In this document: piece after piece, positions 11,890-43,141 of the stretch | Numbering within the stretch: the stretch's first letter is position 1 | Layout of the letters: the number at the start of each line of letters is the position of its first letter | Source: an uncultured Planctomycetales bacterium | GTDB lineage: Bacteria > Omnitrophota > Gorgyraeia > Zapsychrales > Fredricksoniimonadaceae | DNA: 64,000 nt | Reading direction: 5' to 3' | Assembly: GCA_964483785.1 (NCBI GenBank) | Contig: CAZACW010000003.1 | Span: forward strand, 20,559 to 84,558 | Translations under genes and position numbers: made by a program | The notes under the pieces: model-generated | The model's database searches: none | What the model saw: the letters and a program-made list of their open reading frames with translations, nothing else | What the model was told of the DNA's origin: nothing

Positions 11890-12098
11890 TTATCCAGTAC
11901 CTTTAAATAAACCTCTTCACTTCTTCATCAAAACTGTTCTCTATATCTAAAGTATATCCCGTTAATAAGGGCTTTGGGCCCCTGAAAGGCCTTTCAAGAG
12001 AAAGCGCTTTCCCGGTTAAACCCCGACGGAGATTAGAGATAATAGAAAAATTTAGATTAAATTTTTAAAAATTAGGGATCGAGGGTTGCTGCGGGAAA

Positions 12099-12512
12099 CT
12101 AAATCGAGGGCGTTTCGGATTTCTGCAGGATCTTCTTGATGAGCTTGAGCGAATTCTCATCGATGCTGGTAAAATAAATCACAAAGCCTTCGCCCGGCAC
12201 CATGCGGGAGATGCGGGCAAGGCCTTGGATCACTTCTGTATCGTTAACGGCACATTGGATGCTGATGCCGATTTCGTCGTTCACGCTCAAATAAAGATTA
12301 TTTTTGATCCTGACAAAGGCGCTGTTTAAGGACAGGTCCTTGATCTGCGCTTTCACGGACAATTGCGACCCGACGCTGACCGTGGCCGGAAATTCCACGT
12401 TGACGCGCGGCTGGCCGCGCTGGTCGCTGTTGCCCAAATAAGCCGTCATAACATTCCTCGATTCATCTAATGATTCAACGGGAGTAATCATCCTGAATCC
12501 GGATGATATCAT
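12099..12512 (-). CDS. PilZ-like domain protein (putative c-di-GMP binding). A more likely start is the internal Met (MTAYLG...) near 12449.
   Basis: 137 aa ORF. It has an RGQPR (RxxxR) motif followed about 25 aa later by a DLSLNS (DxSxxG-like) motif. It is co-directional with the hem operon. Confidence 0.35.
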   Translation of the reverse strand: MISSGFRMITPVESLDESRNVMTAYLGNSDQRGQPRVNVEFPATVSVGSQLSVKAQIKDLSLNSAFVRIKNNLYLSVNDEIGISIQCAVNDTEVIQGLARISRMVPGEGFVIYFTSIDENSLKLIKKILQKSETPSI

Positions 12513-18944: not shown

Positions 18945-19168
18945 GCCGCAAACATCCCTTTACCATGCGGGTCAAGCCGGGCCGTTACGTTTGGTGCAGC
19001 TGCGTTGAATCCAAGCGACTGCCTTTTTGCGACGGGTCCCATGTCCGGACCGGCAGTACGCCGATGTTTGTCGAGATCACGCAAGAGCAGGAAGTTTCCT
19101 GGTGCGGCTGTAAGATGAGCGCCAAAAAACCGTTTTGCGACGGGACCCACGAACGCGCGGGATCATAG
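18941..19168 (+). CDS. CDGSH iron-sulfur domain protein (two CDGSH-type motifs)
   Basis: From ATG 18941 the sequence is MSRKHPF ... CSCVESKRLPFCDGSHV ... CGCKMSAKKPFCDGTHE. That gives two C-x-C-x(n)-CDG(S/T)H motifs, about 75 aa. It is translationally coupled to the upstream gene. Confidence 0.65.
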   Translation: MSRKHPFTMRVKPGRYVWCSCVESKRLPFCDGSHVRTGSTPMFVEITQEQEVSWCGCKMSAKKPFCDGTHERAGS

Positions 19169-20134
19169 CAGGCTGTGGGCGGTTGATGAGGCAATGTCTT
19201 TAAGGGCTTTAAGCAATTGCCGGCCGTGGGTGTTCAGGCGGCTGTGGGTGCTGCGGGTAGAAAGATTCATCACTCCTAAAATTTCTTTGTTGTTTCTGAT
19301 GATGGGCACAATCAGCGCACATTTTAATTCCGGCTTAATCATCAAATGACGGATGCGGTTATTTTGACCTTGGGCCTGGACCATCATCGGCTTTTTGCTT
19401 TGGGCCGCCAAACCTGCGATACCCTCCCCTAATTTGATGCCCACGCCCTGGGCCTTGCCCAGATTCATGCCCTTGACCATTTGAACATTCAGCTCATCCG
19501 TGCGTTTGTTAAACACCATCAGCGACCCGCATTCAGCCTGGGTCAAGGCCATGGACAATTCCAATAAATTTTTGAACACGGATAAGGACGCCGGGGATGG
19601 TTTGAAGGCAGTGACAGGCGCATCGGTTTCCTTGGACATGATCCTTAAGGCATACTGGGACAATTCCGCAAAAAGATCGAGCATGGATTTCAAGCCGTTA
19701 AAGGTCACGGCCCTGATCTCATTTAAAGAAGCCAGAAATTCCGCGGGATCAGCCCCAAGATCTTGGGCCATGGCCTTGTATTGGGCATGTTCCAAGGGTT
19801 TGTTGATGATCACCGGGCCTATAATCAAATAGGCCAAATGGTCCAGGCCGGCCGCGGCCATGGGAACAGCGAAATAATGCAGGCCAAGCTGGTCCGCGGC
19901 CTTTAAATAAGGGCCCTCTTTTTGGAATTGGGAAAGAAAACCGGATCCTCCAAGGCCCTGAAAAGCGCCCCAGCGCAAGGCCGCCTGTATGCCGTGGCCG
20001 CTGTTTTGCGGTGCTAAGATCGGCCTGCCTTCAGAGTCCGTCATCATGATATGGATGCGCAGCACATCCATAAAATTCACAAGGATCTGGCCTAATTGGG
20101 GACTGGCCTGGATTTTATCAATGATCATTTTCAT
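19163..20134 (-). CDS. GAF-domain protein (C-terminal GAF, N-terminal uncharacterised sensor-like domain). Last gene of the HK-RR-GAF operon.
   Basis: 323 aa. The C-terminal LGEGIAGLAAQSKKPMMV ... ILGVMNLS is GAF-like. Its start overlaps the end of the response-regulator gene by 17 nt. Confidence 0.55.
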   Translation of the reverse strand: MKMIIDKIQASPQLGQILVNFMDVLRIHIMMTDSEGRPILAPQNSGHGIQAALRWGAFQGLGGSGFLSQFQKEGPYLKAADQLGLHYFAVPMAAAGLDHLAYLIIGPVIINKPLEHAQYKAMAQDLGADPAEFLASLNEIRAVTFNGLKSMLDLFAELSQYALRIMSKETDAPVTAFKPSPASLSVFKNLLELSMALTQAECGSLMVFNKRTDELNVQMVKGMNLGKAQGVGIKLGEGIAGLAAQSKKPMMVQAQGQNNRIRHLMIKPELKCALIVPIIRNNKEILGVMNLSTRSTHSRLNTHGRQLLKALKDIASSTAHSLL

Positions 20135-21503
20135 CGGTCAGCGGTATCCCGTATTTTTTCATATTATTGTAAAGCGTGGTGCGGTTGATCCCCAGTTTTT
20201 GCGCGGTCTTGCTGCGGTTGCCATGGCAGTCTTTCAAGGCCTTAAGAATAATGTCCTTGGCCGGACCCTTTAATCCTTCCTGAAGTGATTTAGGCTCAGC
20301 CTTGATTTTGCTGTTGACGAAATTTTTAGGTAAATCTTCCTTGCCGATCATTTTCTTTTTGGCGATAATGGCCGCCCCTTCAATGACGTTTTCCAATTGG
20401 CGCACATTGCCGGGCCAGGCATGGGTCTCAAACAAGGCCTGGACTTCCTCATCAATGCCGGTGATGCTTTTATGGTTTTTGTGGTTGGAGGCTTCGATGA
20501 AATGCTTGACCAGCAGGGAAATATCTTCCCGGCGCTCCCTTAAAGGAGGCATGTGCAAAGGCAGGACATGGATGCGGTAATACAGGTCTTCCCGGAAAGA
20601 GCCTTCTTCAACGAGCTGTTCTAAGTCCTGATTGGAAGCCACGATGACCCGGGCATTGGTCTTTAACGTCTGGGTGTCCCCCACCCTTTCAAAACCGCCG
20701 TCCTGCAGAATGCGCAGCAATTTCACCTGCAGATTGGGCGAACAGGAATTGATTTCATCTAAGAAGATGGTGCCGTTTTGGGCCATTTCAAAGCGGCCTT
20801 TTTTGTCCTTGATGGCGCCGGTAAAGGCCCCTTTGACATGGCCGAACAATTCGCTCTCCAGCAAGGTCTCGGAGAGGGCGCCGCAGCTGACCTCCACAAA
20901 GGGCATGCGGCGGCGTTTGGAGTCATTGTCGTGCACAGCCCTGGCTGCCAGGCCCTTGCCCGTGCCGCTTTCTCCGGTGATCATGATGGTCGCGTTGGTA
21001 TCAGCGACGGATTCGATAAGGCTGTACACCGATTGGATGGCACTGCTGCGGCCGATCATGCCGAAAAAAGAGCCGGCCTTGGCCTTGGGGCCGTGCTGAC
21101 GCAGCTGCTGGCTTTCCTGCAGCAGGCGCTTCTTCTCGATGATTTTGGCCATCAGGTCCTTGACCTGGTCATCCACGATCGGCTTGGTGATGTAATCAAA
21201 GGCGCCCATTTTCATGGCTTCCACCGCCGAAGCGATGCTGCCGTAGCCGGTGATCAGGACCACCTCGGTCAAGGGCGAGGTCTTCTTAATGAAGGCCAAA
21301 AGGTCAAGCCCGCTTTTATCCGGCAATTTCATGTCCGTCATAACAATGTCAAAGGAGCGCTGGGCCGCAAGATGCGAAGCTTCCTGGACGCTGGAGGCCA
21401 TGGCCGCGTCAAAGCCCGCGATCTTCATGGTTTCATACAAGGACTTGCGGATCAAAGGCTCATCATCGACGATCAGGATGGAGTAGGGGTTTAGGCTCAT
21501 CAT
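20118..21503 (-). CDS. Sigma-54-dependent response regulator, NtrC family (REC + AAA+ sigma-54 activator + Fis-type HTH). PrsR-like by context.
   Basis: REC domain (ILIVDDE ... D ... K). Walker A GESGTGKG, GAFTGA sigma-54 contact motif, ESELFGH, and a C-terminal HTH RSKTAQKLGINRTTLYNNMKKYGI. Confidence 0.9.
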   Translation of the reverse strand: MMSLNPYSILIVDDEPLIRKSLYETMKIAGFDAAMASSVQEASHLAAQRSFDIVMTDMKLPDKSGLDLLAFIKKTSPLTEVVLITGYGSIASAVEAMKMGAFDYITKPIVDDQVKDLMAKIIEKKRLLQESQQLRQHGPKAKAGSFFGMIGRSSAIQSVYSLIESVADTNATIMITGESGTGKGLAARAVHDNDSKRRRMPFVEVSCGALSETLLESELFGHVKGAFTGAIKDKKGRFEMAQNGTIFLDEINSCSPNLQVKLLRILQDGGFERVGDTQTLKTNARVIVASNQDLEQLVEEGSFREDLYYRIHVLPLHMPPLRERREDISLLVKHFIEASNHKNHKSITGIDEEVQALFETHAWPGNVRQLENVIEGAAIIAKKKMIGKEDLPKNFVNSKIKAEPKSLQEGLKGPAKDIILKALKDCHGNRSKTAQKLGINRTTLYNNMKKYGIPLTDENDH

Positions 21504-22756
21504 GGGGCCTCGGCCAGGGGCAGTTTGATGCTGAAGGTCGTCCCTTCCTTCAAACGGCTTTTGACCTTGATTTTTCCATTATACAATTTGACGATTTCAT
21601 TGACCACGGTCAAGCCTAAGCCGCAGCCTTTGTCAATGTCCTTGGTGGTAAAAAACGGCTCGAAAATTTTGTCTAAATCAGCGGCCGTGATGCCGTGCCC
21701 GGTATCGGTGATGGCAATTTTGATAAACCCGTCTTCCGTCAGGGTGCGGATTTCGATGCAGCCGTTTTTGTCAATGGCATCAATGGCGTTTTTGATCAAA
21801 TTGCTGAAAACGCGCTCCAGGCCCCAGTCCGTTATTTCAGGGACATTGTGCGCGAAATGCTTGACGAGCTTGATGTTTTTGGCGGCCAGGTACGGATAAA
21901 GTTCCTTAAGGGCACCCTCGATGGTTTTATGGATATCGGCCTTGCGGGCGCTTTCAGGGGATTGGCGCGCGCAGGCCAGCAGGTTTTTGACGATATTGGC
22001 CATGCGTTTAAGGCCCATCTGCACCTCGGTCAAGTATTCTTTTAAGACCTCATCGTTTTGAGCGTGAGACATGCACAGATGATTGTAGCGCATCACCCCG
22101 TCTAAAGGATTGTTGAATTCATGGGCGATCCCTCCTGCCAATTTGCCGAGGGAGACCAGCCGCTCCTGCGATTCGATCTGCTTTTTCAATCCGCTGGTCT
22201 CCTCGCGGGCATGGCCCAATTGATGGGCCATCACGATGCGCTGATAATTAAGCGCAATTTGGTTCGACAAAAAATCCAACAGCTGGTGTTCCCGGTGGGT
22301 AAATGGTTTGGGAGGATTTTTGGCGTAAATGTGCACACTGCCCGTCAGCTTGTCCTTGATCATCAAGGGCGAAGCTATCGCGGTTTTGCTTCTATAGCCT
22401 TTGCCCGGGCCTAAGGTTTTAAGCAATTCCTCTTGATCGTTGTCTTTAAGGCCCACCGAGGCCTTAAGAAGCATCTGGTGGGTCTGGGGATCCAGCAGAA
22501 AAATGGCCCCGCGCCGGGCCTTGAAGACCGGCAAGGTGCTTTGTAAGGCGTCTTTGAAAAGATGCTGGGTGTCGATGGATTCTGAACACAGCACACAGAC
22601 CGCATTGATTTTTTCAAGAAGATTCGACAGCGGAGACGGCGCTTTGTGCTTTTTGAGGGGCATAATCCTGGCTGAGGCAGTCAATGTGTCTATCATATTA
22701 TCGTCAAATGAAAGGATCGTCAAACATCGAATGCATAAAAAAAGCAGACCTTTCAC
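21500..22756 (-). CDS. Cytoplasmic sensor histidine kinase with GAF domain (HisKA + HATPase_c). The GTG start at 22756 is doubtful. ATG at 22696 is more likely.
   Basis: H-box LAGGIAHEFNNPL. N-box and G-boxes NLIKNAIDA ... DTGHGI ... GLGLTVV. No TM segments. Overlaps the RR gene by 4 nt. Confidence 0.85.
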   Translation of the reverse strand: MKGLLFLCIRCLTILSFDDNMIDTLTASARIMPLKKHKAPSPLSNLLEKINAVCVLCSESIDTQHLFKDALQSTLPVFKARRGAIFLLDPQTHQMLLKASVGLKDNDQEELLKTLGPGKGYRSKTAIASPLMIKDKLTGSVHIYAKNPPKPFTHREHQLLDFLSNQIALNYQRIVMAHQLGHAREETSGLKKQIESQERLVSLGKLAGGIAHEFNNPLDGVMRYNHLCMSHAQNDEVLKEYLTEVQMGLKRMANIVKNLLACARQSPESARKADIHKTIEGALKELYPYLAAKNIKLVKHFAHNVPEITDWGLERVFSNLIKNAIDAIDKNGCIEIRTLTEDGFIKIAITDTGHGITAADLDKIFEPFFTTKDIDKGCGLGLTVVNEIVKLYNGKIKVKSRLKEGTTFSIKLPLAEAP

Positions 22757-22819: not shown

Positions 22820-23623
22820 TCACCGGGCGCCGAAGCCGGTCAAAATGACCCGGAATGTGCGCAAGATGATCCTGATATCGGTCAGGAAGCTGATGTTCTT
22901 GATGTAGAGGATATCGTATTTGACTTTTTTGCGCACATCCGCGATGGTCTCATCGTAGCGGTGGTGCACTTGGGCCAGGCCGGTGATGCCGGGTTTGACT
23001 CTCAGGCGTTTTTTGTAATCACCGATTTGGCCTTCCAATTGCTTGACAAATACCGGGCGCTCAGGCCTGGGGCCGATAACGCTCATCTCCCCTTTTAACA
23101 CATTGATAAATTGAGGGATCTCATCCAGACGGCTTTTGCGCAAAAATTGGCCGATGGGTGTGATTCTTTTGTCCTTGGCCTTGGCCCAAACAGGCCCTGA
23201 ATCTTTTTCCGCATCGATATTCATGGTGCGGAATTTATAGATTTCAAAATTTTTGCCGTCCTTGCCGGAGCGGATCTGGCTGTAAAAAATCGGACCTTTG
23301 GAGCTGAGCTTAATCAAAGCCGCAACCAACAGGCAGATAGGAGATAAAAGCACCAGACAAACGCAGGAAATGAGGATATCCATGATTCTTTTGGAGACAT
23401 GATAGGCCCTTCTTAAAAAAGCCACGATCATGGTCAAGACGCCGCTGCCGAAAAGCAGAAAGCTGGAAGGTTCAGGGGCCCGGGAATGGGGCTGGGCGAG
23501 CAAGGCATTGGCCTTATGCACGGCAACCGTGGCGGCCCAGGCATGGGCGTCCATGCCAAGCACAGCGATTAAGGCTGCTCCGAAACAAATAAAAGCCATG
23601 GTTTTAGAGGTCGATTTCATCAT
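22820..23623 (-). CDS. PglC/WbaP-C-terminal-like polyprenyl-phosphate sugar phosphotransferase with an about 80-aa N-terminal extension containing a signal-peptide-like helix and a PEP-CTERM-like motif
   Basis: Core KRIMDILISCVCLVLLSPICLLVAALIKLSSKGPIFYSQIRSGKDGKNFEIYKFRTM ... GPRPER ... PGITGLAQV are small sugar-transferase signatures. The extension reads MMKSTSKTMAFICFGAALIAVLGMDAHAWA-ATVAV ... RAPEPSSFLLFGSGVLTMIVAFLRRAYH, that is PEP, a hydrophobic stretch, then RR. No in-frame stop between the extension and the core. Confidence 0.8.
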   Translation of the reverse strand: MMKSTSKTMAFICFGAALIAVLGMDAHAWAATVAVHKANALLAQPHSRAPEPSSFLLFGSGVLTMIVAFLRRAYHVSKRIMDILISCVCLVLLSPICLLVAALIKLSSKGPIFYSQIRSGKDGKNFEIYKFRTMNIDAEKDSGPVWAKAKDKRITPIGQFLRKSRLDEIPQFINVLKGEMSVIGPRPERPVFVKQLEGQIGDYKKRLRVKPGITGLAQVHHRYDETIADVRKKVKYDILYIKNISFLTDIRIILRTFRVILTGFGAR

Positions 23624-23671: not shown

Positions 23672-23688
23672 AGCAATTACCGTGCCAA
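23672..23688 (-). promoter_or_regulatory. Sigma-54 (-24/-12) promoter TTGGCACGGTAATTGCT upstream of the PEP-CTERM/sugar-transferase gene
   Basis: On the minus strand: TGGCAC-GGTAA-TTGCT. This is an exact match to TGGCAC-N5-TTGCW with correct 5-nt spacing. It lies about 50 nt upstream of the start codon at 23623, inside an AT-rich 240-nt gap. Confidence 0.65.
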
Positions 23689-23862: not shown

Positions 23863-24495
23863 TTAAGGTAGGTATTGCGATAATTTTGGACCTAACATGC
23901 TGGCAAATGCATCGATACGTTTTGAGGCCTCATTTTGACGCCCATCAATAATGTCAGCAGAAATCCTAATTAGAGCAGTACCTGTTCTCTTACCGGTCAA
24001 GGTATTATAGGCTGATAAGGTCTGCTGTTTCCAATAGCTGTGGGTGTACAAATTACCCACCTTAAACCAATAATAGACAATTTGCTGGTTTTGGTCATTA
24101 TCCAGCAAAAGCCAGTTGACCTTGATCTTGGGCCGAGAAGGGTTAATTATAATAGTATTCTTGCCCTTGTCAAGGATAGAAAATCCTGAATCCTTGTAAA
24201 AAATATCCGGCGGATTGGCGGCTTTGGGATTGCTTTGGGAATAGGCAATATATAAATAAATCCGCCCATGTCTGGCAGAATCATAACGCCTCAGAAAGGC
24301 GTTCTTGGTTTCCAAAATAGACACGTCCACCCTGCCCAAAGGCAGTTCCTGCGCAGTCCAGGGGCCGATGGTGGCGGGGAATTTTTCAACGCTGATGGAG
24401 TCCGGGTGATTAAAAGAAGTGGAATAATATTCCCATGAAATGAACATGGTGAAGATGGCCAGGGTCAGAATAAAAAAATAGTAGCGTGAGGGCAT
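23863..24495 (-). CDS. EpsI-family exosortase-associated protein
   Basis: 210 aa, N-terminal TM, IGPWTAQELP motif, periplasmic domain. It sits immediately downstream of the exosortase gene. Confidence 0.55.
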   Translation of the reverse strand: MPSRYYFFILTLAIFTMFISWEYYSTSFNHPDSISVEKFPATIGPWTAQELPLGRVDVSILETKNAFLRRYDSARHGRIYLYIAYSQSNPKAANPPDIFYKDSGFSILDKGKNTIIINPSRPKIKVNWLLLDNDQNQQIVYYWFKVGNLYTHSYWKQQTLSAYNTLTGKRTGTALIRISADIIDGRQNEASKRIDAFASMLGPKLSQYLP

Positions 24496-24496
24496 T

Positions 24497-25375
24497 TTAG
24501 GTCAATAGTTTTTTAACGGTAAAAAGCATCAAAAAAGCAAAAATAAAGACCATGTACCCTGATAATCCATGGAGAAAGCCCTGGGTGTATTGCGTTCCCC
24601 AGATCTCCCCTACCGCAGCCAAGAACACGATGCGCAGGGCATTGGTGACCACGGCAATGGGGATGGCCGAGGCAAAAAGCAGGATTTTTTTCGACAATCT
24701 CAATTTCAAGCGGTAGGCAAAGATACTGCCTAAGGCAGCCAGGGAGATCAGGGACCTTAAGCCGCCGCAGGAATCCTCCACTTCCACGTAACTATGGGAC
24801 ATCATGATCAAACTGCTCTGCTGCAGCGCGGGAAGGCCCATGAGATTGAGGACCAAGGTGGCCAGGTGCGCGGCGATGATTTTCAATTTAAAACACACAA
24901 AAGCGACCAGGATGATGGGCATGGGCACCATGAAGGCCAGAAACAATACCGGAAAACGGATTTCCTTGAGCGTCCTTTCCCCGTAAAAATACAGGATAAG
25001 GCCAGCGAGGATGATGATCATGGCGAAACCTGAGGTGAAATACACATGCAGAATGGCGCTGGCCCAATAGAGGATGACGCCTGCGCTAAATAGTTCAAAT
25101 CCCCAATGGGAGGGTTTAACCGGGATTTTTTTAAGGACAGCCCTTTTTTTCCAAATCAAAAATGCGGAGATGACGGGGATGAGAATGCCGTGGCTGTAAT
25201 AGGAATTGTCCGCGAACCAGCGGTCCCACATCCACAGCATGGTCGGGAAAAACGCGGCCAGCAAAAAGACAAATACCAGCAATTCCCGTTGATGGTCCCT
25301 GATCAGGGCCTTGGTCTGGAGCATATCATGGGTGCCGCGCCTTTGTCCAGGCGGCCTGCTGTTGGGCCGTGACAA
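24497..25375 (-). CDS. Exosortase (EpsH/Xrt family transpeptidase)
   Basis: 292 aa polytopic membrane protein. Conserved Cys in VEDSCGGLRSLISLAALG and Asn/Arg in VVTNALRIVFLA match the exosortase catalytic signature. Genomic context is EpsI, GT2, deacetylase. Confidence 0.75.
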   Translation of the reverse strand: MSRPNSRPPGQRRGTHDMLQTKALIRDHQRELLVFVFLLAAFFPTMLWMWDRWFADNSYYSHGILIPVISAFLIWKKRAVLKKIPVKPSHWGFELFSAGVILYWASAILHVYFTSGFAMIIILAGLILYFYGERTLKEIRFPVLFLAFMVPMPIILVAFVCFKLKIIAAHLATLVLNLMGLPALQQSSLIMMSHSYVEVEDSCGGLRSLISLAALGSIFAYRLKLRLSKKILLFASAIPIAVVTNALRIVFLAAVGEIWGTQYTQGFLHGLSGYMVFIFAFLMLFTVKKLLT

Positions 25376-26477
25376 AACGCCAAAAGCCGGCCAGCGCTGA
25401 GAAATTCAAAAGACAGAACACATACGGCACGTAGCAAACTTTGGAGATGTATTTCAAAAGGCCCTGGCGGCCCTCCCGCGTCAGATGCCCGATGAGGGCC
25501 GCCAGATAAAAGGCGGATTGAAGGACAAAGAAAAATCGGAAAACAGCATCATAAATTAGCACAAGATTGATCAAAAATAAAGCGATAAGGCAAAACGGGA
25601 CCATGACTCTCAGGAATTTATGGGAGATCAAGGGCCAGGCAATGGGGCTTTTCAAGGGGATGAACATGTCCGGAAAAAGGAAAAAAATCTGGTAATTGCC
25701 AAACAGGGTCCTGGTCTTGCGGCGGTATTCTTCCTTGGGGGAAGCTGCTACCTCATCAAAGGCCAGGGCACTGCCGTCGAAGACGGCCCGAAAACCCTGG
25801 CGGATGATGGCCAAGGGAATGTACATATCATCCAGGACAATGTCCAAAGGCCCGGGGACAAACAGATTTTTACGGATGGCGTAAATGGCGCCGGTCGAAC
25901 CCAGCATGGAATGCAGGGCGCTTTCCTGGCGGCGGATGAATTTTTCATAGGTCCAATACAGGCTGACCCCCTGGGCCGTGCTCCCTTGCTTGGGCGCGAA
26001 GACCAATTCCCCGCTGACACAGCCGATCTTGGGGTCGGCGAAATTGGCGGTCAATTGCTTCAGCGCGCCGGGGTCGATGTTTTGCCTGGCATCATTGAAA
26101 AAGATGATCTCATGGCCGGCATGCTCCACCAGGCTGTTGAGGGTGGCCATTTTTCCCTGGCGCTTTGGATTGACAAAGAGTTTGACCCGCGGGCTTAAAT
26201 AAGGGCGGATGATCTCATGGGTCAGGTCGCTGGAGCCGTCGGAGCCGATCAAAATTTCCAATTTGTTTTCGGGGTAATCGAGTTTAAGGAGATTTTGGAT
26301 TTTGGGACCGATCACATCTTCTTCATTGTAGACCGAGATGAGCAGAGAAACCGTCGGCTCATAGGAGGATTTATGCACCGGGTTTTTCAAAAGCCTGGCC
26401 AGCGCAAAGACCAGGCAGGGATAAAGAAAATAACAATAAACGACGAGCGACAAAATCGTCCAGAAGAGGATGGTCAT
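25326..26477 (-). CDS. Family 2 glycosyltransferase with C-terminal TM helices (processive synthase-like)
   Basis: LISVYNEEDVIGPKIQNLLKLDYP ... ILIGSDGSSD ... DAR, plus multiple C-terminal hydrophobic helices. Confidence 0.75.
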   Translation of the reverse strand: MTILFWTILSLVVYCYFLYPCLVFALARLLKNPVHKSSYEPTVSLLISVYNEEDVIGPKIQNLLKLDYPENKLEILIGSDGSSDLTHEIIRPYLSPRVKLFVNPKRQGKMATLNSLVEHAGHEIIFFNDARQNIDPGALKQLTANFADPKIGCVSGELVFAPKQGSTAQGVSLYWTYEKFIRRQESALHSMLGSTGAIYAIRKNLFVPGPLDIVLDDMYIPLAIIRQGFRAVFDGSALAFDEVAASPKEEYRRKTRTLFGNYQIFFLFPDMFIPLKSPIAWPLISHKFLRVMVPFCLIALFLINLVLIYDAVFRFFFVLQSAFYLAALIGHLTREGRQGLLKYISKVCYVPYVFCLLNFSALAGFWRFVTAQQQAAWTKARHP

Positions 26478-27256
26478 TGGATGAGTTTAATGAAGAGGCT
26501 GCGCAGTCCATTGTATCCGTTTTCGCGCAGCAGGATTTTCAAGGTCCTTTTGACCGCGTCCCCCGTCCTTTCCAGGAAAGGGGTCTTGCCATGCATGGCC
26601 AGATCGAAACGGGCCAGGTTCCAATGGGACTTGACCGCGATGCGGCTGATGCATCCTGATTTAAGCCAGGCCTGGGGTTCAGAAATGAAAATGGTCTTAT
26701 ACCCCAGCCCATAGGCGGTCTCGATGATTTTTTCGTTGCAAAACCCCCTGGGGATGGACAGGGCATCAATGCTGATCCCCAAATTTTTTTCCAGGTTTTT
26801 TTTGGAGGCCCGCAATTCCTCCTCCATTTGGGAATCCAGCAAATTGGTGAGGATCTCATGGCTCAAGCCGTGGGAGCCGATCACCATGCCGGCCTCATGC
26901 AGTTCTTTGAGCTCCTTCCAGCCCATATAGCCGTCCCTGCCCACCCTTTTGATGATGATGAAAAAATAAGCCTTCCATCCCATGCTTTTTAAGACCGGCA
27001 GGGCCTGCTTGTGATTGTTCATTTCCCCGTCGTCAAAGGTGATGATCACGGGTTTGGGGCCCATCAGCGCTGCGGTGTTTTCATACAGCGTTGGTTCAAA
27101 TCCCTGCTCTTTGAGCCAGTTCATCTGGGTGACGAAATTATCCAGGGACACATCATACAGGTGCGCCCCTGTTTCGCGGTCATCCGGCAGACGGCCCGGC
27201 TCATTGGCACTGATGCCGTGGTACATCAGGGTGATGGGATTAAGTCCTTGAGGCAC
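26474..27256 (-). CDS. Polysaccharide deacetylase (NodB homology domain), exosortase-locus type
   Basis: IITFDDGEMNNHKQALPVLKSMGWKAYFF ... GSHGLSHE are NodB motifs 1-3. Confidence 0.8.
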   Translation of the reverse strand: MPQGLNPITLMYHGISANEPGRLPDDRETGAHLYDVSLDNFVTQMNWLKEQGFEPTLYENTAALMGPKPVIITFDDGEMNNHKQALPVLKSMGWKAYFFIIIKRVGRDGYMGWKELKELHEAGMVIGSHGLSHEILTNLLDSQMEEELRASKKNLEKNLGISIDALSIPRGFCNEKIIETAYGLGYKTIFISEPQAWLKSGCISRIAVKSHWNLARFDLAMHGKTPFLERTGDAVKRTLKILLRENGYNGLRSLFIKLIQ

Positions 27257-27275: not shown

Positions 27276-27809
27276 TTACGATTCCATTAAACTCATGCGC
27301 GCCACCACAATGCGGCCGCGCAAGGACCCCGACGCATCGGAGTATTTTTCCAGGTTGAGCGCATTGATAAAGTAAAAGTTGGGCGGGTCCTGCAAGGCGC
27401 GCAAAAACTGCACGATGTCCAGCCATTGCCCGTCGATTTCCAGCTCCACCGGGAAAAAACTGGCCTCTTTCTGGATGAAGGACCTTTGCGGCTGGATATT
27501 GGCGATATGGATATTGCTTTCCCTGGCCGCGGCCTCGATTTTGGAGATGATCGCAGGGGCCTGGGTCTCTTCTGACCCGGCCAGGCCGATGGCATCCGCC
27601 AGATTATGGTACCTGGTTTCGATCATGCCCCCCTGGCCCAAGACCTGGCGGCTCTTTAAAAGTCTGGCCTTGGTGACCCGCAGTTGATCGTCGATGTCCG
27701 CGGCCCCTTCCTTAACGGGCCTGATCACCCAGAGGTAAACAAGAAAAACAGCCGAAAGCCCCAGGGTGATGCTCAGGATGATGGTTTCGCGTTGGCTAAG
27801 CTTTTTCAT
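27276..27809 (-). CDS. gspM: T2SS protein M-like (GspM/PilO fold)
   Basis: 177 aa with a short N-terminal cytoplasmic segment, one TM and a periplasmic domain. Last gene of the gsp-ordered operon. Confidence 0.5.
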   Translation of the reverse strand: MKKLSQRETIILSITLGLSAVFLVYLWVIRPVKEGAADIDDQLRVTKARLLKSRQVLGQGGMIETRYHNLADAIGLAGSEETQAPAIISKIEAAARESNIHIANIQPQRSFIQKEASFFPVELEIDGQWLDIVQFLRALQDPPNFYFINALNLEKYSDASGSLRGRIVVARMSLMES

Positions 27810-29235
27810 GCGGTGCGCTCATGGGTTTAAAGGCGCAGGTGATCTTGAAATAATCCACTTCTCCCTGCTGGGTCACCCGTTTATTGACATAATCCAAATT
27901 CACATTGGAAAATTTTTGGTAATTGGCCAGGTCTTTTTGGAATTGGTTGACATCGACGGGGTTTGAGGCCACCCCTTGAAACGAGAGGCTGTTGTTTTCA
28001 TTCAGGGCCATGCTGACCAGATACACCTGGGCCGGCAGGACACGGTAAATTTCCAAGGCCAAATCAGAAAAGACCAGGCGGTTTTTGACCATCGATTCAA
28101 TATCATGGATTTTTTTCAGCCGCTCCTCCACCTTCTGGGCCGCTTCTTTGGTGGTGCGCAGCTGGTCCTTAAGCTTGGCCAGCTGGATATTTTTTTTGAC
28201 ATAGCCCATGCTTAAAGAGAGCCCCAGGGCGGCCAGGGCCGCGGCCAGCCAAAGGCCGCAGATGATCAGCTGGCGCTGATGCATCTTTTGTTCCTGGGAT
28301 TGCCGCACAGCTGTTGGGACCAAATTGATGGGCGGTGTTTGACTGCTTAAGGCAATGCCGGCCAGCGGCGCCAGGGACATGCCCTCTTGCGTGCATAAGG
28401 AGGGTATGCGCACATCACGGGCCAATTTTAAGAATTTTGTCAACAGCACATCCTGAATGTTTAAGGCATTTTGGGTTTTGGTCAGTTCCTGGCCAAGGGC
28501 AAAAGCCCCTTCCCAGCAGCTGATGATATACACCGTGTCCAAGGCCTGGGCCGCCTTTTCGCCGCCGATATTATGCTGGGTCAGTTCCCATTGTTTTAAT
28601 ATTTCCCCATAACCGTCCTGAGCGATCTGGGTGAGACCCGACGGCAATTCTCTCGATGCAGACCAGTGCGCGGGATGGCAGACGCAGATTTCGCTTTTGT
28701 CAAGGTCAAGGTCAAAGACCGCCGCAGGCTTGTCCCCTGTATTGGGCCATTGGGTGTAAAGGTTCCAGAGGCCGATGGAGGAGAGCGTGATGCTGTGCAC
28801 CCTGACCTTGGCCTCCGCGAAGATTTTCCAATAGCGCATGGCGGTTTCCTGCGGGATGATGACCACAGCCACCTTGGCGTATCCGTCGGGAGATTTGGCC
28901 AGGACTTGAAAATCCATCTGCACTTCTTCCAATTCATAGGGAATGCTGCTGCTAACCTGCAGTTCGATCATGGAACGGATCTCGCTGTCCTGATGGGAAG
29001 GCACGGACATCAAACGCAGGATCACCCGCGAGCGCGGGATCACCACGGTCACCCTGGCCTCGTTCAAATTTAATCTGCGCCTTTTAAGAAAGGTCCAGAG
29101 GCCCTGGCTGATTTGAGCTTCGCTCTGGCCTTTGATCAAAAGCACATCCAGGGCCGTAACGAGCTTGGAGCTTGTCAGGACCTGTAAAAATTTGATGCGT
29201 TCCTCGTCGATATAAAACACGGCGTTGGATTTCAT
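27796..29235 (-). CDS. gspL: T2SS protein L-like (cytoplasmic actin-like domain + TM + periplasmic PilN-like domain). The true start is MKSNAVFYIDEERIKF. The upstream 52 codons in the ORF track are an Arg-rich read-through.
   Basis: Architecture is cytoplasmic domain, TM (LIICGLWLAAALAALGLSL), periplasmic domain. Position between gspK-like and gspM-like genes. Confidence 0.5.
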   Translation of the reverse strand: MKSNAVFYIDEERIKFLQVLTSSKLVTALDVLLIKGQSEAQISQGLWTFLKRRRLNLNEARVTVVIPRSRVILRLMSVPSHQDSEIRSMIELQVSSSIPYELEEVQMDFQVLAKSPDGYAKVAVVIIPQETAMRYWKIFAEAKVRVHSITLSSIGLWNLYTQWPNTGDKPAAVFDLDLDKSEICVCHPAHWSASRELPSGLTQIAQDGYGEILKQWELTQHNIGGEKAAQALDTVYIISCWEGAFALGQELTKTQNALNIQDVLLTKFLKLARDVRIPSLCTQEGMSLAPLAGIALSSQTPPINLVPTAVRQSQEQKMHQRQLIICGLWLAAALAALGLSLSMGYVKKNIQLAKLKDQLRTTKEAAQKVEERLKKIHDIESMVKNRLVFSDLALEIYRVLPAQVYLVSMALNENNSLSFQGVASNPVDVNQFQKDLANYQKFSNVNLDYVNKRVTQQGEVDYFKITCAFKPMSAPHEKA

Positions 29236-29237
29236 CT

Positions 29238-30254
29238 TTAATCCCTTTGCCGGGACACCAGAACGGCCGGCGCGCCGGGCACGCGATGGATCACCGCTTC
29301 GATGATGGATCGCGCACCGCTGACAGCGTCGATGCCGATGACCCTGGCCCGGTAATAATTGGAGACCCCTTCCTGCAGGGCCGCGGGCCAATTGGGGTCA
29401 GCCACGCTGGCCAAGGACCCTGCCCCGTCGTCCAAGGTAAAAGACCGGCTGTCCGCGCCGTCGCGCAGGGCATAGGCTTGGCTGATCACCTCATCGGCGT
29501 TGACAGACGGATTAACGCGGGCCGCGGCATGGACAACGGCCTGGATCACGTCATTGTCGGCCGTGTCCACATTGACTCTAAGGCCGTTTTGGATGTCCCC
29601 ATAAACAGTCACATCGTCTTTTATTTTAGCAAAAATTTCCTTGGTCATGCCATTTACTTCCAATAATTCCAGGAGATTTTCATAGGGCCTGTTTTTGGTC
29701 TTCAACAGCGCATCATCCAGGTTTTTGAAAGACTGATTGTTGCTGGCCTGCGCGTTTAAGCCCGTGTAATTGACGATGGCCAGGGCCAGCCTGTCCCCTT
29801 CTGCCAATGAAAGGCCATAGACCTGCAGCAAGGCGCTGAGGACCTGGTAATTGGAAATCCCGATGGCATTGATATTGATGCGCCCCCCTTCATCCCTGAT
29901 GCCGTATTGCATCTGCCCGTCGTCCACACCGTTGAAATGCGCTGCCGGCCAGGCGATGATGGCGTAGTTACGGGGGCCGGTGTCGACATGGGAAAATAAT
30001 GTTTCAGGGCTTTGGGTGGCGCTGATCAGAATGCCGTCGGAATATAAACAGTCCTTGGCCGCGGGCGCTTTTTGCAGAAGATCCAGGACCTGATTGAGCC
30101 CGGAGCGCGCGGCTGCCAGGGAGCGCAGTTTTCCCCGGTAGGTGTCGACCAGGGACACTTCCAGCGCGGCGCGCCGGCCAAGGCCCCAGGCGATCAAGGC
30201 CAAAATGATCAGGACCCATAAGGCCACGATCAAGACAGCGCCTCTATTGTTCAT
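29238..30254 (-). CDS. gspK: Minor pseudopilin GspK-like (start at MNNRGAVLIVALWVLIIL, no Glu+5)
   Basis: Prepilin-like N-terminus lacking the conserved glutamate. About 338 aa. Position after gspJ-like. Confidence 0.5.
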   Translation of the reverse strand: MNNRGAVLIVALWVLIILALIAWGLGRRAALEVSLVDTYRGKLRSLAAARSGLNQVLDLLQKAPAAKDCLYSDGILISATQSPETLFSHVDTGPRNYAIIAWPAAHFNGVDDGQMQYGIRDEGGRININAIGISNYQVLSALLQVYGLSLAEGDRLALAIVNYTGLNAQASNNQSFKNLDDALLKTKNRPYENLLELLEVNGMTKEIFAKIKDDVTVYGDIQNGLRVNVDTADNDVIQAVVHAAARVNPSVNADEVISQAYALRDGADSRSFTLDDGAGSLASVADPNWPAALQEGVSNYYRARVIGIDAVSGARSIIEAVIHRVPGAPAVLVSRQRD

Positions 30255-30972
30255 TGTACAGGCCCTCCACCGGCGGCAAGTAAAAATCACGTTTAAACAC
30301 CGGGCCTCCTGCGCGGCTGGACGGATCAGACAGCACAAAGGCGCAGGACACGGCCAAAGGGAGCCCTTTTTCGTCCCAGCTTTCGGCAAAATTCAGCTCC
30401 TGCGCCCCGCCTGTATGCAGGTTTTTGGTAAAAGGCGCAAAGCGGCAGTTGAAGCTTCCTTTTTTTAAACCAGCGGCGATGATTTGGGTGGACGCATCAT
30501 GGTTCGTTTCATTAAGCCAGTCCGCCAAACTGCTTTCCTGCCTCAGCAAAAACTCATCCGGCGATGACCCTGAATTTGCGCTGCCGCCGTGATTGACCAC
30601 GCGGCCGATCATGGCATAGGCCAGGCCTCCTGGCGGCGGAAGGCCGGCATAATAACGGACATGTTTAAGGCCCGATGGGGTCTGGGTCATGAAGGAGAAT
30701 TCCTGCGCCTGGCCTTCAAAGACCGCGGCATCGGGATAGGAACCGGACAGATCGAGGCTGACCGCATTGTCCAGGTCGCGGGTCATGGCTTGATCCGCCA
30801 GCAGGATTTCCATCCAATGGTCATGGCTGTGCCTCAAGCGTTCATCGAGTTTCATGGAAGACCAAAAGAGATTGTAAACGCTGACGCCGATGATGGCGGC
30901 GATGGCCAGCCCCAGCAGAACTTCGACGAGGGTAAAGGCCCGGGGTGAATGTTGGAGTCGTTTAATTCTCAT
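30244..30972 (-). CDS. gspJ: Minor pseudopilin GspJ-like
   Basis: N-terminus RAFTLVEVLLGLAIAAII is a prepilin cleavage/methylation motif. 242 aa. Confidence 0.5.
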   Translation of the reverse strand: MRIKRLQHSPRAFTLVEVLLGLAIAAIIGVSVYNLFWSSMKLDERLRHSHDHWMEILLADQAMTRDLDNAVSLDLSGSYPDAAVFEGQAQEFSFMTQTPSGLKHVRYYAGLPPPGGLAYAMIGRVVNHGGSANSGSSPDEFLLRQESSLADWLNETNHDASTQIIAAGLKKGSFNCRFAPFTKNLHTGGAQELNFAESWDEKGLPLAVSCAFVLSDPSSRAGGPVFKRDFYLPPVEGLYNEQ

Positions 30973-31336
30973 CGAGGCTGTACAGGATTGAGCTTACGGC
31001 CATGCGGTTTGCACCTGACCCGGCGGGCCATTGCAAGGTCAGGTCCACTTTTTTCAAATGCGCATTGACCCTGCTGGTTTGGGCGCTTGTGGTCATGAGC
31101 TCATAGGGCTTGTCCATGGGCCGCGCCGCGCTCTCCAGCTGGTCCGGTGCGCCGCTGCTGGCCCACAGGAGCCCCAATTGGTTTTCCATGGCGAGCAAAG
31201 CCCTGACTGTTTCCTGAAACCTGAGGCCGGTGCGGTAATTGGTCCAGAGCGATTCGACGATGAAGGTCAGGACAATGCTGACAATGACAATGGTCAGCAC
31301 GGCCTCCAAGAGCATAAACCCGTTTTTATTCTTCAT
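30962..31336 (-). CDS. gspI: Minor pseudopilin GspI-like
   Basis: N-terminus NGFMLLEAVLTIVIV. 124 aa. Confidence 0.5.
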   Translation of the reverse strand: MKNKNGFMLLEAVLTIVIVSIVLTFIVESLWTNYRTGLRFQETVRALLAMENQLGLLWASSGAPDQLESAARPMDKPYELMTTSAQTSRVNAHLKKVDLTLQWPAGSGANRMAVSSILYSLDEN

Positions 31337-31823
31337 GGTCTTCCTTGATCATCATGCCCCGCACCGTGGATGAGCTTAAGGTGGTTTTGAAAGCGGATGA
31401 ATCCAGGACAATGGACGCGGGATCAATGGTCCCGTCCGGATGAAACTGAATGCTTGAGGGTTGCACATCGACCCGCACAGCCTCTGGCACAGGGTGCGGC
31501 CTGCCTAAGGAGCCGTTGACCGGCTCAAAACTGTCCTCTTCATCCTCTGCCTGGCCTTCCTTGGCGCGCATCAGTTTATACGCGCGGCCGTCCTCGGCAA
31601 AGCGCAAGGCATAGGCCCTTTGCTGGCCGATGGCCATGGCCTGCGCCCAGCGGCTGATGTGAAGCAAATCATCCGCGGTCTGGTTCAACTGAAAATGCGC
31701 GTAACCTTTGGAAAAATTGGGCGCGCTAAGCGCCAGGACGATCCCCAGCACGATGATGACCAAAAGCAATTCCACAAGCGTCAGGCCGCTATTTGCCTTC
31801 GGTGCCCCAATTGGTGATATCAT
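31326..31823 (-). CDS. gspH: Pseudopilin GspH-like (start near MISPIGAPKANSGLTLVELLLVII)
   Basis: GLTLVELLLVIIVLGI prepilin motif. The ORF-track start at 31910 overlaps gspG. Confidence 0.5.
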   Translation of the reverse strand: MISPIGAPKANSGLTLVELLLVIIVLGIVLALSAPNFSKGYAHFQLNQTADDLLHISRWAQAMAIGQQRAYALRFAEDGRAYKLMRAKEGQAEDEEDSFEPVNGSLGRPHPVPEAVRVDVQPSSIQFHPDGTIDPASIVLDSSAFKTTLSSSTVRGMMIKEDHEE

Positions 31824-32226
31824 CGCCGCTTTCCACCCCGTCAGGGCCCGGGGACGATAGATCATAGCTTTCCGGATTGTGCTGGCCCGGAGCTGTGTAC
31901 ACATAATCATGGCCCCAGGGGTCCTTGGGGATTTTTTTCTTTTTCAAATAAGGGCCGCTCCAATTTTCCGGGACCGGAGAGGCCGTGGGCTGTGCGATCA
32001 GGGCGGCAAGGCCCTGTTCCGTGTTGGGGTATTGGCCCACGTCCATCTTGTAAAGGTCCAAGGCCGTGCTTAAGTTGGATTCGAGGTCTGTGCGGGCCGC
32101 GGTCTTGCGCGCCTGCTCGCTGCGGCCGGCGATATTGGGGACCAGCATGGCCACCAGGATCCCGATGATGATCACCACCAGCATGATTTCGATGAGCGTA
32201 AATCCCCGTCTGGATGAATCGAACAT
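31789..32226 (-). CDS. gspG: Major pseudopilin GspG
   Basis: RGFTLIEIMLVVIIIGILVAM prepilin motif plus the GspG-specific DPWGHDYVY (DPWGNPY-like) signature. 145 aa. Confidence 0.85.
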   Translation of the reverse strand: MFDSSRRGFTLIEIMLVVIIIGILVAMLVPNIAGRSEQARKTAARTDLESNLSTALDLYKMDVGQYPNTEQGLAALIAQPTASPVPENWSGPYLKKKKIPKDPWGHDYVYTAPGQHNPESYDLSSPGPDGVESGDDITNWGTEGK

Positions 32227-32238
32227 ACAGCTCTCCCG

Positions 32239-33453
32239 TCAATTAATGATCATATTCATTTGGAACATCGGCAAAAGCATGGCCACCACCATGAAGCCCA
32301 CAATGCCAACGACCACAACCAGGACCGCCGGCCCCAGGATGGTCACAAAGGTCTGGGCCAGGGCCTGTGAGCGGCGTTCGCAATGGTCAGCCAATTTGTA
32401 CAGCCCTTTTTCCAGTTTACCACTTTCCTGGCCCACGGCAATCAAATCCACGGCCATTTCAGGAAACAAGGTGCTTAATTTGATGGCTTGGGTCAGGCTC
32501 ATGCCGGACTTGACCCTGAGGGCCATTTTTTTGACTTCTTCCTGCAAGATGACATTGTCCATCACCTGGGTCACAGACTCCAGGGCCGTGACAATGGGTA
32601 CCCCGCTCTCTAAAAGCATCCCCAGGGTCCTGGCTAAGCGGCTTAATTGCGTATCTTCAATAAAGGTTTTAAGCAATGGGATTTTTAAACACAGGCCGTC
32701 CAGCCAGGCCTTGCCCGGCGCGGATTTGATGGAACGCATCAGTCCATAGGTTGCGGCCGCCGTCGCTGCGGCAATCAGCCACCAAAAGTGCGCAAAAAAT
32801 TGGCTGAGCGCAACGACGATCCGGGTGATCAAGGGCAGTTGGGCGTTTAAGTCGTCGAACATCAAGGTCAGGCGCGGCAACACAAAAGACAAGAGCACAT
32901 AAAGGGTCAAAAGCCCGACGGCCAAGATGATGGCAGGATACAACAGGCTTGAAGTGACCCTGGAGCGCATGCGCATATCCGCATCCAACAATTGGGCCAG
33001 CCTGTCCATGACTAAGGGCAGCTGGCCGCTGCTTTCCGCGGCCTTCACGGTATGGACATAAATAGGCAGAAATATTTTAGGAAATCTGGACAAGGCAAAG
33101 GAGAAACTCCCCCCTTGCTGCAGGCTCATATTCAAGGAGGCGATGATCAGCTGCATGAGCGGATATTGGCGCTGTTTGGACAAAATTTCCATGCACCGCG
33201 CCAAGGGGATCCCCGCTTCCAAAAGGTCCGCCAATTGCCGGGTAAATTGATAAAGGGCGGCCTGGGTGGTCTTGGTGGTGGTGATGGTGTCACCGGCATC
33301 GGGCAGGTCTATTTTTAAGTATTGTTTGACATCTAAGGGGACCTGGCCGGCATGGGTCAGTTTGGCAACGGCCTCAGCCAGGGTGTCTGCTTCGATCATG
33401 CCGTTGACCACATTTTGGGGACCGCTTTTGGCTGTGTAGGAAAATTGCGGCAT
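32239..33453 (-). CDS. gspF: T2SS inner-membrane platform protein GspF
   Basis: 404 aa with two GspF-type repeats and three TM segments. Position between gspE and gspG. Confidence 0.85.
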   Translation of the reverse strand: MPQFSYTAKSGPQNVVNGMIEADTLAEAVAKLTHAGQVPLDVKQYLKIDLPDAGDTITTTKTTQAALYQFTRQLADLLEAGIPLARCMEILSKQRQYPLMQLIIASLNMSLQQGGSFSFALSRFPKIFLPIYVHTVKAAESSGQLPLVMDRLAQLLDADMRMRSRVTSSLLYPAIILAVGLLTLYVLLSFVLPRLTLMFDDLNAQLPLITRIVVALSQFFAHFWWLIAAATAAATYGLMRSIKSAPGKAWLDGLCLKIPLLKTFIEDTQLSRLARTLGMLLESGVPIVTALESVTQVMDNVILQEEVKKMALRVKSGMSLTQAIKLSTLFPEMAVDLIAVGQESGKLEKGLYKLADHCERRSQALAQTFVTILGPAVLVVVVGIVGFMVVAMLLPMFQMNMIIN

Positions 33454-33459
33454 AGGGCT

Positions 33460-35148: not shown

Positions 35149-35162
35149 AGGTTCACCGGTCT

Positions 35163-40693: not shown

Positions 40694-40727
40694 AACCCAC
40701 CTCGCCGTTGGGGCATTACATTAAATT

Positions 40728-40767
40728 AAAAAACCTATTCCTCGTTTGCACAAAGAATAGGTTTTTT
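40728..40767. terminator. Bidirectional rho-independent terminator AAAAAACCTATTC-(14 nt loop)-GAATAGGTTTTTT, located 33 nt upstream of the paralog-A start codon
   Basis: 9-bp stem flanked by A6 and T6. On the minus strand it follows the 688-aa gene by about 300 nt and precedes the RBS GAGGTGG of the 1110-aa gene. Confidence 0.6.
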
Positions 40768-40876
40768 AATGGTGAATATGGCAACTGGCTACCTGTCCGG
40801 GCTACGGCCCGGGGTAAGGCCCTATAGCTTTGTGCCCCACCCTTTCGGGTGGTTTACCTTTTACATATCTAAGCGA

Positions 40877-40905
40877 AGCATAACACGTAATTCTTGTGTT
40901 GTCAA
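40877..40905 (-). promoter_or_regulatory. Sigma-70-like promoter TTGACA-17nt-TATGCT on the minus strand, about 175 nt upstream of the paralog-A start
   Basis: Minus-strand read aaacTTGACAacacaagaattacgtgtTATGCTtcg. Perfect -35, 17-nt spacer, 4/6 -10. Confidence 0.3.
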
Positions 40906-41062
40906 GTTTACTAAAAATCAAATATAATTTGATATTAGGTATATTATTTGCCTAATAATCAAAGTATATTTTTGCGGTCAAGATTAAAAAGATCGATGTC
41001 AAATTCGACAGAAACAGGTTTTTATCCTAAAAAATTATTGTAAACCTTAGATAGATATTGAA

Positions 41063-43129: not shown

Positions 43130-43141
43130 GATTTGGAGAAT

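Follow-up and report, generated by a model that had tools for sequence, protein, structure and literature searches.

Closest described systems

PEP-CTERM proteins, the clients of exosortases, carry a signal peptide, an invariant Pro-Glu-Pro (PEP), a hydrophobic Gly-rich helix immediately behind it and then a cluster of basic residues (PF07589 and TIGR02595); in 87% of these domains fewer than 10 residues come after the domain, and examples with long tails may be non-functional (Haft 2006, PMC1569441). Here we describe a gene on the minus strand of a 64-kb stretch of DNA (64,000 nt of contig CAZACW010000003.1, from an uncultured Planctomycetales bacterium; "the window" in what follows), whose product, termed PEP-PGT, has the signal peptide, PEP, helix and basic cluster. 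Its locus also contains an exosortase, EpsI and a PrsK/PrsR-like pair, and a sigma-54 promoter lies in the long stretch upstream of the gene. PEP-PGT differs from the known clients in that the domain is not C-terminal, the block being followed by 195 residues that make up a complete cytoplasmic enzyme, a monotopic phosphoglycosyl transferase (PGT). Moreover, in the clade of the window protein the "cargo" is only a variable linker of about 18-45 residues, whereas conservation of the helix and of the four residues in front of PEP far exceeds that seen in ordinary clients. PEP-PGT is an ancient fusion, and we consider it probable, from comparative evidence, that in it the initiating (priming) polyprenyl-phosphate sugar-1-phosphate transferase of an exosortase-linked exopolysaccharide (EPS) locus is itself an exosortase client, docked or clipped at PEP.

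On the enzyme side, the closest system is EpsB2 (TIGR03013) of Aquincola tertiaricarbonis, in which epsB2 is followed by prsK and prsR and is required for flocs to form, and in which the PEP-CTERM gene pepA depends on RpoN (PMC9850573). PEP-PGT shares with EpsB2 the PF02397 family, the priming role in an exosortase-linked EPS locus and the order PGT, histidine kinase, sigma-54 response regulator. However, EpsB2-type enzymes have four N-terminal helices and a cytoplasmic domain where PEP-PGT has a signal peptide and a PEP-CTERM helix instead; TIGR03013 gives 267.9 bits against a cutoff of 393.35, matching only model positions 237-443, its C-terminal half. The likeness to PglC (8G1N, 8E37) and to the WbaP core (8T53) extends over the fold, the re-entrant helix with its Ser-Pro break, the Asp-Glu dyad and the PRP motif; PglC, in contrast, starts at the re-entrant helix, while PEP-PGT has about 77 extra N-terminal residues predicted to cross the membrane twice.

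Some other sorting enzymes offer a conceptual parallel only, being coupled to a lipid-carrier glycan. Sortase A uses lipid II, a lipid-linked glycan, as acceptor. The type IX secretion system sortase PorU uses the linking sugar of A-LPS (PMC7468200). In PEP-PGT, unlike these, the carrier-priming enzyme itself bears the sorting signal, and the PGT product as an acceptor would be speculation. To our knowledge no acceptor is known for exosortases, and some 20 years after they were predicted their attachment target, their recognition of clients and their constant placement in polysaccharide loci are unexplained.

Full-text literature searches found no paper on PEP-CTERM fused to a PGT or Bac_transf domain, an earlier passing mention being possible, and NCBIfam release 20 has no dedicated model for PEP-PGT; the Pfam pair PF07589 and PF02397 is already present in precomputed annotations. 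The names given by the sources are only "sugar transferase" or [quoted passage not shown].

Domain layout of PEP-PGT

The gene and its parts are as follows; here and below, counts out of 95 refer to an alignment of 95 full-length family members.

22820-23623, minus strand: PEP-PGT gene, with signal peptide, linker, PEP-CTERM-type helix and monotopic PGT, 267 aa (open reading frame (ORF) and translation)
23534-23623, minus strand: Sec-type signal peptide MMKSTSKTMAFICFGAALIAVLGMDAHAWA, residues 1-30 (n/h/c pattern, by inspection)
23480-23533, minus strand: variable periplasmic linker ATVAVHKANALLAQPHSR, residues 31-48, 18 aa (homologue alignment)
23408-23479, minus strand: PEP-CTERM-type exosortase recognition block APEPSSFLLFGSGVLTMIVAFLRR, residues 49-72 (PF07589 and TIGR02595 span)
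23303-23392, minus strand: re-entrant membrane helix KRIMDILISCVCLVLLSPICLLVAALIKLS (KRIMDIL...LLSPICLL...), residues 78-107 (Ser-Pro break; alignment with the PglC/WbaP fold)
22823-23302, minus strand: cytoplasmic catalytic domain, residues 108-267 (motifs invariant in 95/95)

The ORF runs through its 267 residues with no in-frame stop. An initial annotation, made from the letters alone, had placed a PEP-CTERM-like signal at 23384-23623, which is exactly residues 1-80, in frame before a PglC-like sugar transferase and behind a signal-peptide-like start and a linker of about 20 aa; this layout was confirmed, PF07589 and TIGR02595 both matching exactly residues 49-72 and Bac_transf (PF02397) residues 78-261 (233.9 bits, E 1e-69, gathering score 27). 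By inspection, the first 30 residues comprise a basic n-region, a hydrophobic h-region and a c-region with an AxA site (AWA|A), at which signal-peptide cleavage would be expected, and inspection together with a simple rule found an AxA-type segment at the equivalent place in 93 of the 95 homologues. TIGR03025 (EPS_sugtrans) scores 312.2 bits against a cutoff of 295.55, matching only positions 243-444 of its 445, so that the N-terminal half of that model is absent.

An AF2 model built on the 95 homologues has a mean predicted local distance difference test (pLDDT) value of 83, with a helix at 5-23, disorder at 24-53 (pLDDT below 50 at 27-39) and a helix that runs from 54 on into the catalytic domain. 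The top matches in a Foldseek search of the PDB were PglC structures (8g1n and 8e37; 40% identity, E 7e-13, TM(target) 0.76-0.79), and the WbaP core 8t53 was found as well. In the re-entrant helix K78, R79 and D82 are invariant and the S94-P95 break keeps P95 in 94/95, while K130-x-R132-x-M134 (KFRTM), the D167-E168 dyad and P185-R186-P187 are invariant in 95/95. We take the Ser-Pro break, the Asp-Glu dyad and the PRP motif to have the roles described for PglC.

Match of the block to the PEP-CTERM signal

In order, length and charge pattern the block is that of a PEP-CTERM domain, as had been noted from the letters: APEPSS is followed at once by FLLFGSGVLTMIVAFL, with PEP directly abutting the hydrophobic helix; the hydrophobic stretch covers residues 54-70, and then come RR and, within 9 residues, KR, R71 being conserved in 94/95. 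PF07589 gave 19.4 bits with the full-length window protein, 22.1 with its first 79 aa and 24.0 with a 52-aa segment (gathering score 20.7). With TIGR02595 the values were 15.6 for the full length and 16.4 for the N-terminus (cutoff 16), so that the proposed check of the N-terminus against this model was passed by a narrow margin there and failed with the whole protein. Taken by itself, then, the window protein gives borderline profile evidence. At the level of the family the thresholds are reached: 51 of 54 diverse 52-residue family segments matched PF07589 at E<=4e-4, with no matches to other Pfam families, and full-length forms with a longer N-terminal part exceed the gathering score (P0150, 26.4 bits; P0161 and P0183, 22.9 bits each).

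Nearly the same sequence is found in C-terminal PEP-CTERM tails of Acidobacteria (TPEPSSLALFGSGILG..LRRR and TPEPSSLALFGSGILGVAGVLRRRLMG, with a 3-residue tail; loci L012 and L013, with the same DNA pattern). A chance likeness of a transmembrane helix to PEP-CTERM was considered and ruled out by the invariance of PEP, the 51 of 54 Pfam matches and the near-identity to these genuine tails. Judged by sequence features, the block is in every respect a PEP-CTERM domain except in its position and, for the window protein, in its borderline profile scores, the number of residues after it being exactly 195 in the window protein and its close relatives and 191-215 in more distant forms.

Conservation of the fusion

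A search of a collection of 5.8 billion proteins provided the 120 best homologues, 55-81% identical to the window protein. PEP lies within the first 140 residues in 113 of these, the remainder being truncated gene calls, and all but the truncated calls share the layout of signal peptide, variable linker, PEP block and transferase. The family consensus reads [RK]-S-[RH]-[AV]-PEP-[ST]-[ST]-h-h-L-F-G-S-G-h-h-x-M-h-h-S-F-h-R-R-x-Y-x-x-x-K-R-x-x-D, after which the transferase follows. Among the 95 aligned homologues P50, E51, P52 and L57 are invariant, while G59, G61, M65, F69 and R71 are at least 90% conserved; counted from PEP, the helix keeps M+15 in 93, F+19 in 91 and Y+24 in all 95. The linker is hypervariable (10-45 aa, median 30, rich in Ser, Ala, Gln, Thr and Lys, with no Cys), its only conserved part being [RK]-S-[RH]-A, the four residues right before PEP. 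The PEP codons differ synonymously between loci (CCT/CCG/CCC, GAA/GAG and CCT/CCA/CCC), and in the 33-codon block 632 pairwise codon differences are synonymous, which means that selection acts on the protein.

The initial annotation had left two readings, a real fusion or a lost stop codon that merged two genes, and proposed that the same fusion be sought in relatives. It was found in about 200 homologues from many independent assemblies, all with the same uninterrupted frame and with the junction RR[A/T]Y...KRxxD conserved; the source genomes are mostly metagenome-assembled genomes labelled Candidatus Omnitrophota/Omnitrophica or "uncultured Planctomycetales". The window gene itself is present, 100% identical and with no stop, in an independent Logan assembly of run SRR12313480. 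Orthologues do not uniformly begin at the internal Met (MDIL): just 37/95 have Met81, no Met at all occurs in residues 73-84 in 48/95, and the region upstream is conserved as protein with synonymously varied codons; thus an internal true start was ruled out. Since about 200 homologues keep the frame, a second assembly is identical and Met81 is rare, the lost-stop reading is refuted, and by these sequence comparisons the fusion is established as ancient and under purifying selection.

The exosortase locus

The genes around PEP-PGT are listed in the order in which they precede and follow it on the minus strand.

26474-27256, minus strand: polysaccharide deacetylase (weak PdaB/PgaB-like match)
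25326-26477, minus strand: family 2 glycosyltransferase, GT2 (weak PgaC-like match)
24497-25324, minus strand: exosortase, unclassified subtype, probable start ATG 25324 (TIGR02602 171.9 bits, cutoff 105.55; PF09721 E 1e-62)
23863-24495, minus strand: EpsI, exosortase-associated protein (TIGR02914 98.7 bits, cutoff 42.8; PF11984 E 3e-33)
21500-22756, minus strand: GAF histidine kinase, downstream (PrsK, TIGR02916, 88 bits against a cutoff of 300)
20118-21503, minus strand: sigma-54-dependent response regulator, downstream (PrsR, TIGR02915, 377 bits against a cutoff of 502.6)
19163-20134, minus strand: PocR/GAF protein, downstream (syntenic in related loci)

EpsI ends 240 bp upstream of PEP-PGT and the exosortase lies 0.87 kb upstream, in agreement with the closeness first noted. 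The kinase and the regulator agree with PrsK and PrsR in architecture and position but score below the equivalog cutoffs, and we therefore call them PrsK/PrsR-like only. With XrtA (TIGR03109) the exosortase reaches 174.6 bits (cutoff 208), and the cutoffs of XrtD, XrtW, XrtV and XrtB are missed too. All of 9 orthologues keep its Cys (in DSCGGLRS), its Arg (in NALRI) and its His (in FLHG), which correspond to the catalytic triad proposed by Haft (PMC1569441; bioRxiv 10.1101/2023.06.07.544157). A sequence search of the PDB found no solved exosortase structure. Read from its mechanically called TTG start, the exosortase ORF (24497-25375, minus strand) would overlap the GT2 gene; translation more likely begins at ATG 25324, 2 nt after the GT2 stop codon, which would mean translational coupling of GT2, exosortase and EpsI.

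The order exosortase, EpsI, PGT is found in every locus with enough flanking sequence (L001-L007, L017-L020, L026 and a 415-kb JGI contig). The full order, namely deacetylase, GT2, exosortase, EpsI, a gap of 240-400 bp, PEP-PGT, GAF kinase, sigma-54 regulator and PocR/GAF protein, was read in L002, L004, L006, L007, L018/L019 and the JGI contig, the shorter contigs L001, L003, L005 and L017 showing only part of it; the GT2 and deacetylase genes are syntenic in L002, L004, L006, L007, L018 and the JGI contig. In L020, and in L026, which is more distant, the exosortase, EpsI and PGT genes are retained and classic PEP-CTERM genes follow just downstream. By gene content, PEP-PGT is paired in all loci with enough flank with EpsI and an exosortase of intact Cys, Arg and His.

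Regulation

Two predicted regulatory elements were located upstream of the gene.

23672-23687, minus strand: sigma-54 (-24/-12) promoter TGGCACGGTAATTGCT (TGGCAC-N5-TTGCT), a perfect match, about 50 nt upstream of the start codon
23821-23838, minus strand: candidate enhancer (upstream activating sequence) TGTTGAAAAACTTATACA (TGTTGA-N6-TTATACA), about 150 nt upstream of the sigma-54 promoter

In 10 of 14 related loci, TGGYAY-N5-TTGCT stands at the corresponding position before the PGT gene. At the enhancer position, TGTWGA-N6-TYAACA with at most 2 mismatches was found in 8 of 10 close loci (background 0.24 hits per kb), consistent with an enhancer function of the motif, and the conserved promoter and candidate enhancer together suggest control of PEP-PGT by the adjacent sigma-54 response regulator. 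In proteobacteria, PEP-CTERM genes form single-gene units preceded by more than 200 nt of DNA, in which a sigma-54 promoter lies about 71 nt before the start and an enhancer about 63 nt beyond that promoter (Haft 2006, PMC1569441). In its predicted elements, PEP-PGT has the sigma-54 layout typical of PEP-CTERM genes.

The wider family

Among 1.84 billion cluster representatives, a profile of 52 columns that spans the PEP block and the beginning of the re-entrant helix matched 185 clusters at E<=1e-3; a genome scan with a narrow family alignment gave only 6 family loci and ordinary PEP-CTERM genes. The 219 complete relatives retrieved were classified by their N-terminal type.

Short PEP form: 188/219
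Long-cargo PEP form: 16/219
Degenerate, PEA or PEL: 2/219
Homologous helix without PEP: 8/219 (one of them, P0283, a mis-anchored long form)
N-terminally truncated call: 5/219

PEP thus stands at the right position in 204 of the 219. The long-cargo forms among the profile matches (P0150, P0161, P0182, P0183, P0203 and P0240; 372-490 residues) have a signal peptide and a domain of 130-260 residues before the PEP block and the transferase. In P0203 this domain is a PKD domain. For P0240, residues 9-210 are 40% identical (E 8e-40) to a free-standing 194-aa PEP-CTERM protein encoded just upstream of P0183 in L024; on this homology, the N-terminal half of P0240 is elsewhere a normal exosortase client, a Rosetta-stone relationship. 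Classic PEP-CTERM genes adjoin the fusion gene in L020, L022, L024 and L026, and in L022 it comes after two such genes and an EpsI gene.

In a neighbor-joining tree of the catalytic domains, midpoint-rooted and with an insecure rooting, a clade lacking PEP is basal, the long-cargo forms make up a basal grade, and the window protein belongs with the other short-linker forms to one large derived clade. Because the long-cargo forms are deep and the short-linker clade derived, the tree is in keeping with an old fusion in which the cargo was later reduced and PEP retained.

The representative library also holds P0123, a protein from outside the window with 2,500 aa, in which ten consecutive modules of signal peptide, domain of about 200 aa and PEP-CTERM follow each other with no stops between; this is a polyprotein processed by signal peptidase and exosortase, or else an artefact of gene calling or stop codons.

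Proposed mechanism and alternatives

The orientation of PEP-PGT in the membrane follows from its catalytic domain: since this must be cytoplasmic (PglC fold, invariant DE and PRP, cytoplasmic nucleotide sugars), the helix before it would run from outside to inside, and PEP would therefore lie at the periplasmic face, which supports the topology first predicted. We propose that the signal peptide inserts the N-terminus, and that the PEP-CTERM helix spans the membrane back inward, leaving RR and the catalytic domain in the cytoplasm. The neighbouring exosortase would then recognise this helix as it does with ordinary clients; most likely, the PGT would thereby be drawn to the exosortase/EpsI complex and cut at PEP. 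Clipping would shed a small N-terminal peptide, or in the long forms a real cargo domain, and leave a helix-anchored PGT, so that polysaccharide initiation would be coupled, spatially and stoichiometrically, to protein sorting.

Functional recognition by the exosortase, whether as docking or as cleavage, appears likely to us, because an invariant PEP beside a freely drifting linker is hard to explain otherwise, and a physical link between the sorting enzyme and the initiation of the sugar chain is probable. The initial annotation had seen here a direct genetic link between exosortase and EPS initiation; the genetic link stands by virtue of the fusion, while the mechanistic part was overstated, a fusion being no demonstration of mechanism, and we regard a mechanistic link as plausible.

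Whether the helix is cut is the point on which one alternative differs. Here the helix would sit unprocessed in the substrate groove of the exosortase, as a tether or as a pseudo-substrate that tunes the activity of the exosortase or the PGT. The identity of the helix is far above what a discarded leaving group needs and fits a lasting helix-helix interface, and the 10-45 variable residues of the window clade leave little to export; however, a cleaved helix would stay part of the PGT, which explains its conservation equally well. The long forms, moreover, carry real extracytoplasmic domains (one like a free PEP-CTERM protein, one PKD) whose release is expected as for their free-standing client paralogues, which argues for cutting, and the exosortase keeps its full catalytic triad. 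We hold docking with no cleavage to be possible, if doubtful.

A second alternative is that an ancient fusion of a PEP-CTERM gene with a PGT gene has left a relic, the helix now serving only as a second membrane anchor that the exosortase ignores. Several observations weigh against exosortase recognition and some of them suit such a relic. The full-length window protein lies just below both curated thresholds (19.4 against 20.7 bits and 15.6 against 16), its block is not at the extreme C-terminus, the defining position of PEP-CTERM, the long-tailed matches discussed by Haft may be non-functional, and no other PEP-CTERM protein was found in the 64-kb window. Two relatives have PEA or PEL instead of PEP. 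A sister clade (P0334 and six others, among them P0291, P0328, P0330, P0333 and P0357) keeps the homologous helix (..FPWAVSGSFVGM..F.RKRF; SGSFVGM) and the layout of two helices plus a re-entrant helix, with no PEP. Such relatives served as a natural control, in that an exosortase might have been missing near them; instead, P0334 (L027, 10001-10882) shares its locus with an exosortase, an EpsI gene and two classic PEP-CTERM genes, which means that PEP is not indispensable to this type of PGT. Nor is the motif generally closer to the classic tails of its own locus than to those of other loci: L022 alone shows such a resemblance (0.68 against 0.4-0.5), which L020, L024 and L026 lack.

Nevertheless, a plain anchor needs no Pro-Glu-Pro, and PEP is invariant in 95/95, in proteins of 55-81% identity, with synonymous codon turnover and a drifting linker beside it; [RK]-S-[RH]-A before PEP is conserved too, and the adjacency of exosortase, EpsI and PGT is strict wherever there is enough flank. 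On balance we judge the relic anchor improbable. An artefact of sequencing or assembly, a lost stop or a frameshift that joined a small PEP-CTERM gene to a small PGT starting at MDIL, has the Met at residue 81 as its sole hint and can be dismissed on the shared frame, the identical second assembly and the rarity of that Met.

Within the preferred reading, that of PEP-PGT as an exosortase client, a more ambitious scheme can be drawn by analogy, namely a single machine in which the helix would bring the PGT into the exosortase groove, with the cut at PEP as a checkpoint that licenses polysaccharide initiation; in its stronger form, the undecaprenyl-diphosphate-linked sugar that the PGT makes, extended by the GT2 and converted to a free amine by the deacetylase, would be the exosortase acceptor for PEP-CTERM clients. 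In such a scheme the exosortase, which falls into no named Xrt subtype, may be a new subtype with the PGT as its signature client. We think this scheme unlikely.

PEP-PGT amounts to a natural construct: its sorting signal is joined to an enzyme whose fold is known and whose activity is easily assayed, and the "leaving group", a 22-kDa domain, can readily be tagged, so that recognition and cleavage by the exosortase are directly testable. It also offers a concrete hypothesis for the coupling of protein sorting and polysaccharide initiation. The working assumption that PEP-CTERM matches far from the C-terminus are non-functional is corrected by a block more conserved than ordinary examples.

Other features of the window and of related loci

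A single open frame that spans at least 3,963 codons (1-11889, minus strand) continues past the left end of the window, which is why the ORF lists lack it, and encodes a giant protein to which no type was assigned; what had looked like a 12-kb gene desert is this frame. It had no Pfam match at E<=1e-3, and no Rfam match was found in 1-12500. On the other side, between the exosortase cassette and three large secreted proteins, lies a block resembling type II secretion or type IV pilus systems (27276-36746, minus strand), with GspM-like and PilM-like genes, pseudopilin-sized, GspF-sized and ATPase-sized ORFs and a PilQ/GspD secretin. The three large ORFs (37361-47317, minus strand; 1110, 688 and 1391 aa) begin with signal-peptide-like segments and lack a PEP-CTERM tail, and the 1110-aa ORF has no NCBIfam match; giant proteins rich in Big_7 and PKD domains flank the cassette in the related JGI contig.

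Several related loci have, directly downstream of PEP-PGT, a conserved polytopic membrane protein of 277-300 aa with no assigned family, usually followed by a TPR protein. This region, absent from the window, is found at the following places.

L018, 11096-12873: polytopic membrane protein/TPR region
L022, 9589-11365: polytopic membrane protein/TPR region
L024, 4143-4985: polytopic membrane protein/TPR region
L027, 10938-13195: polytopic membrane protein/TPR region

The TPR protein in these loci may be a counterpart of PrsT.

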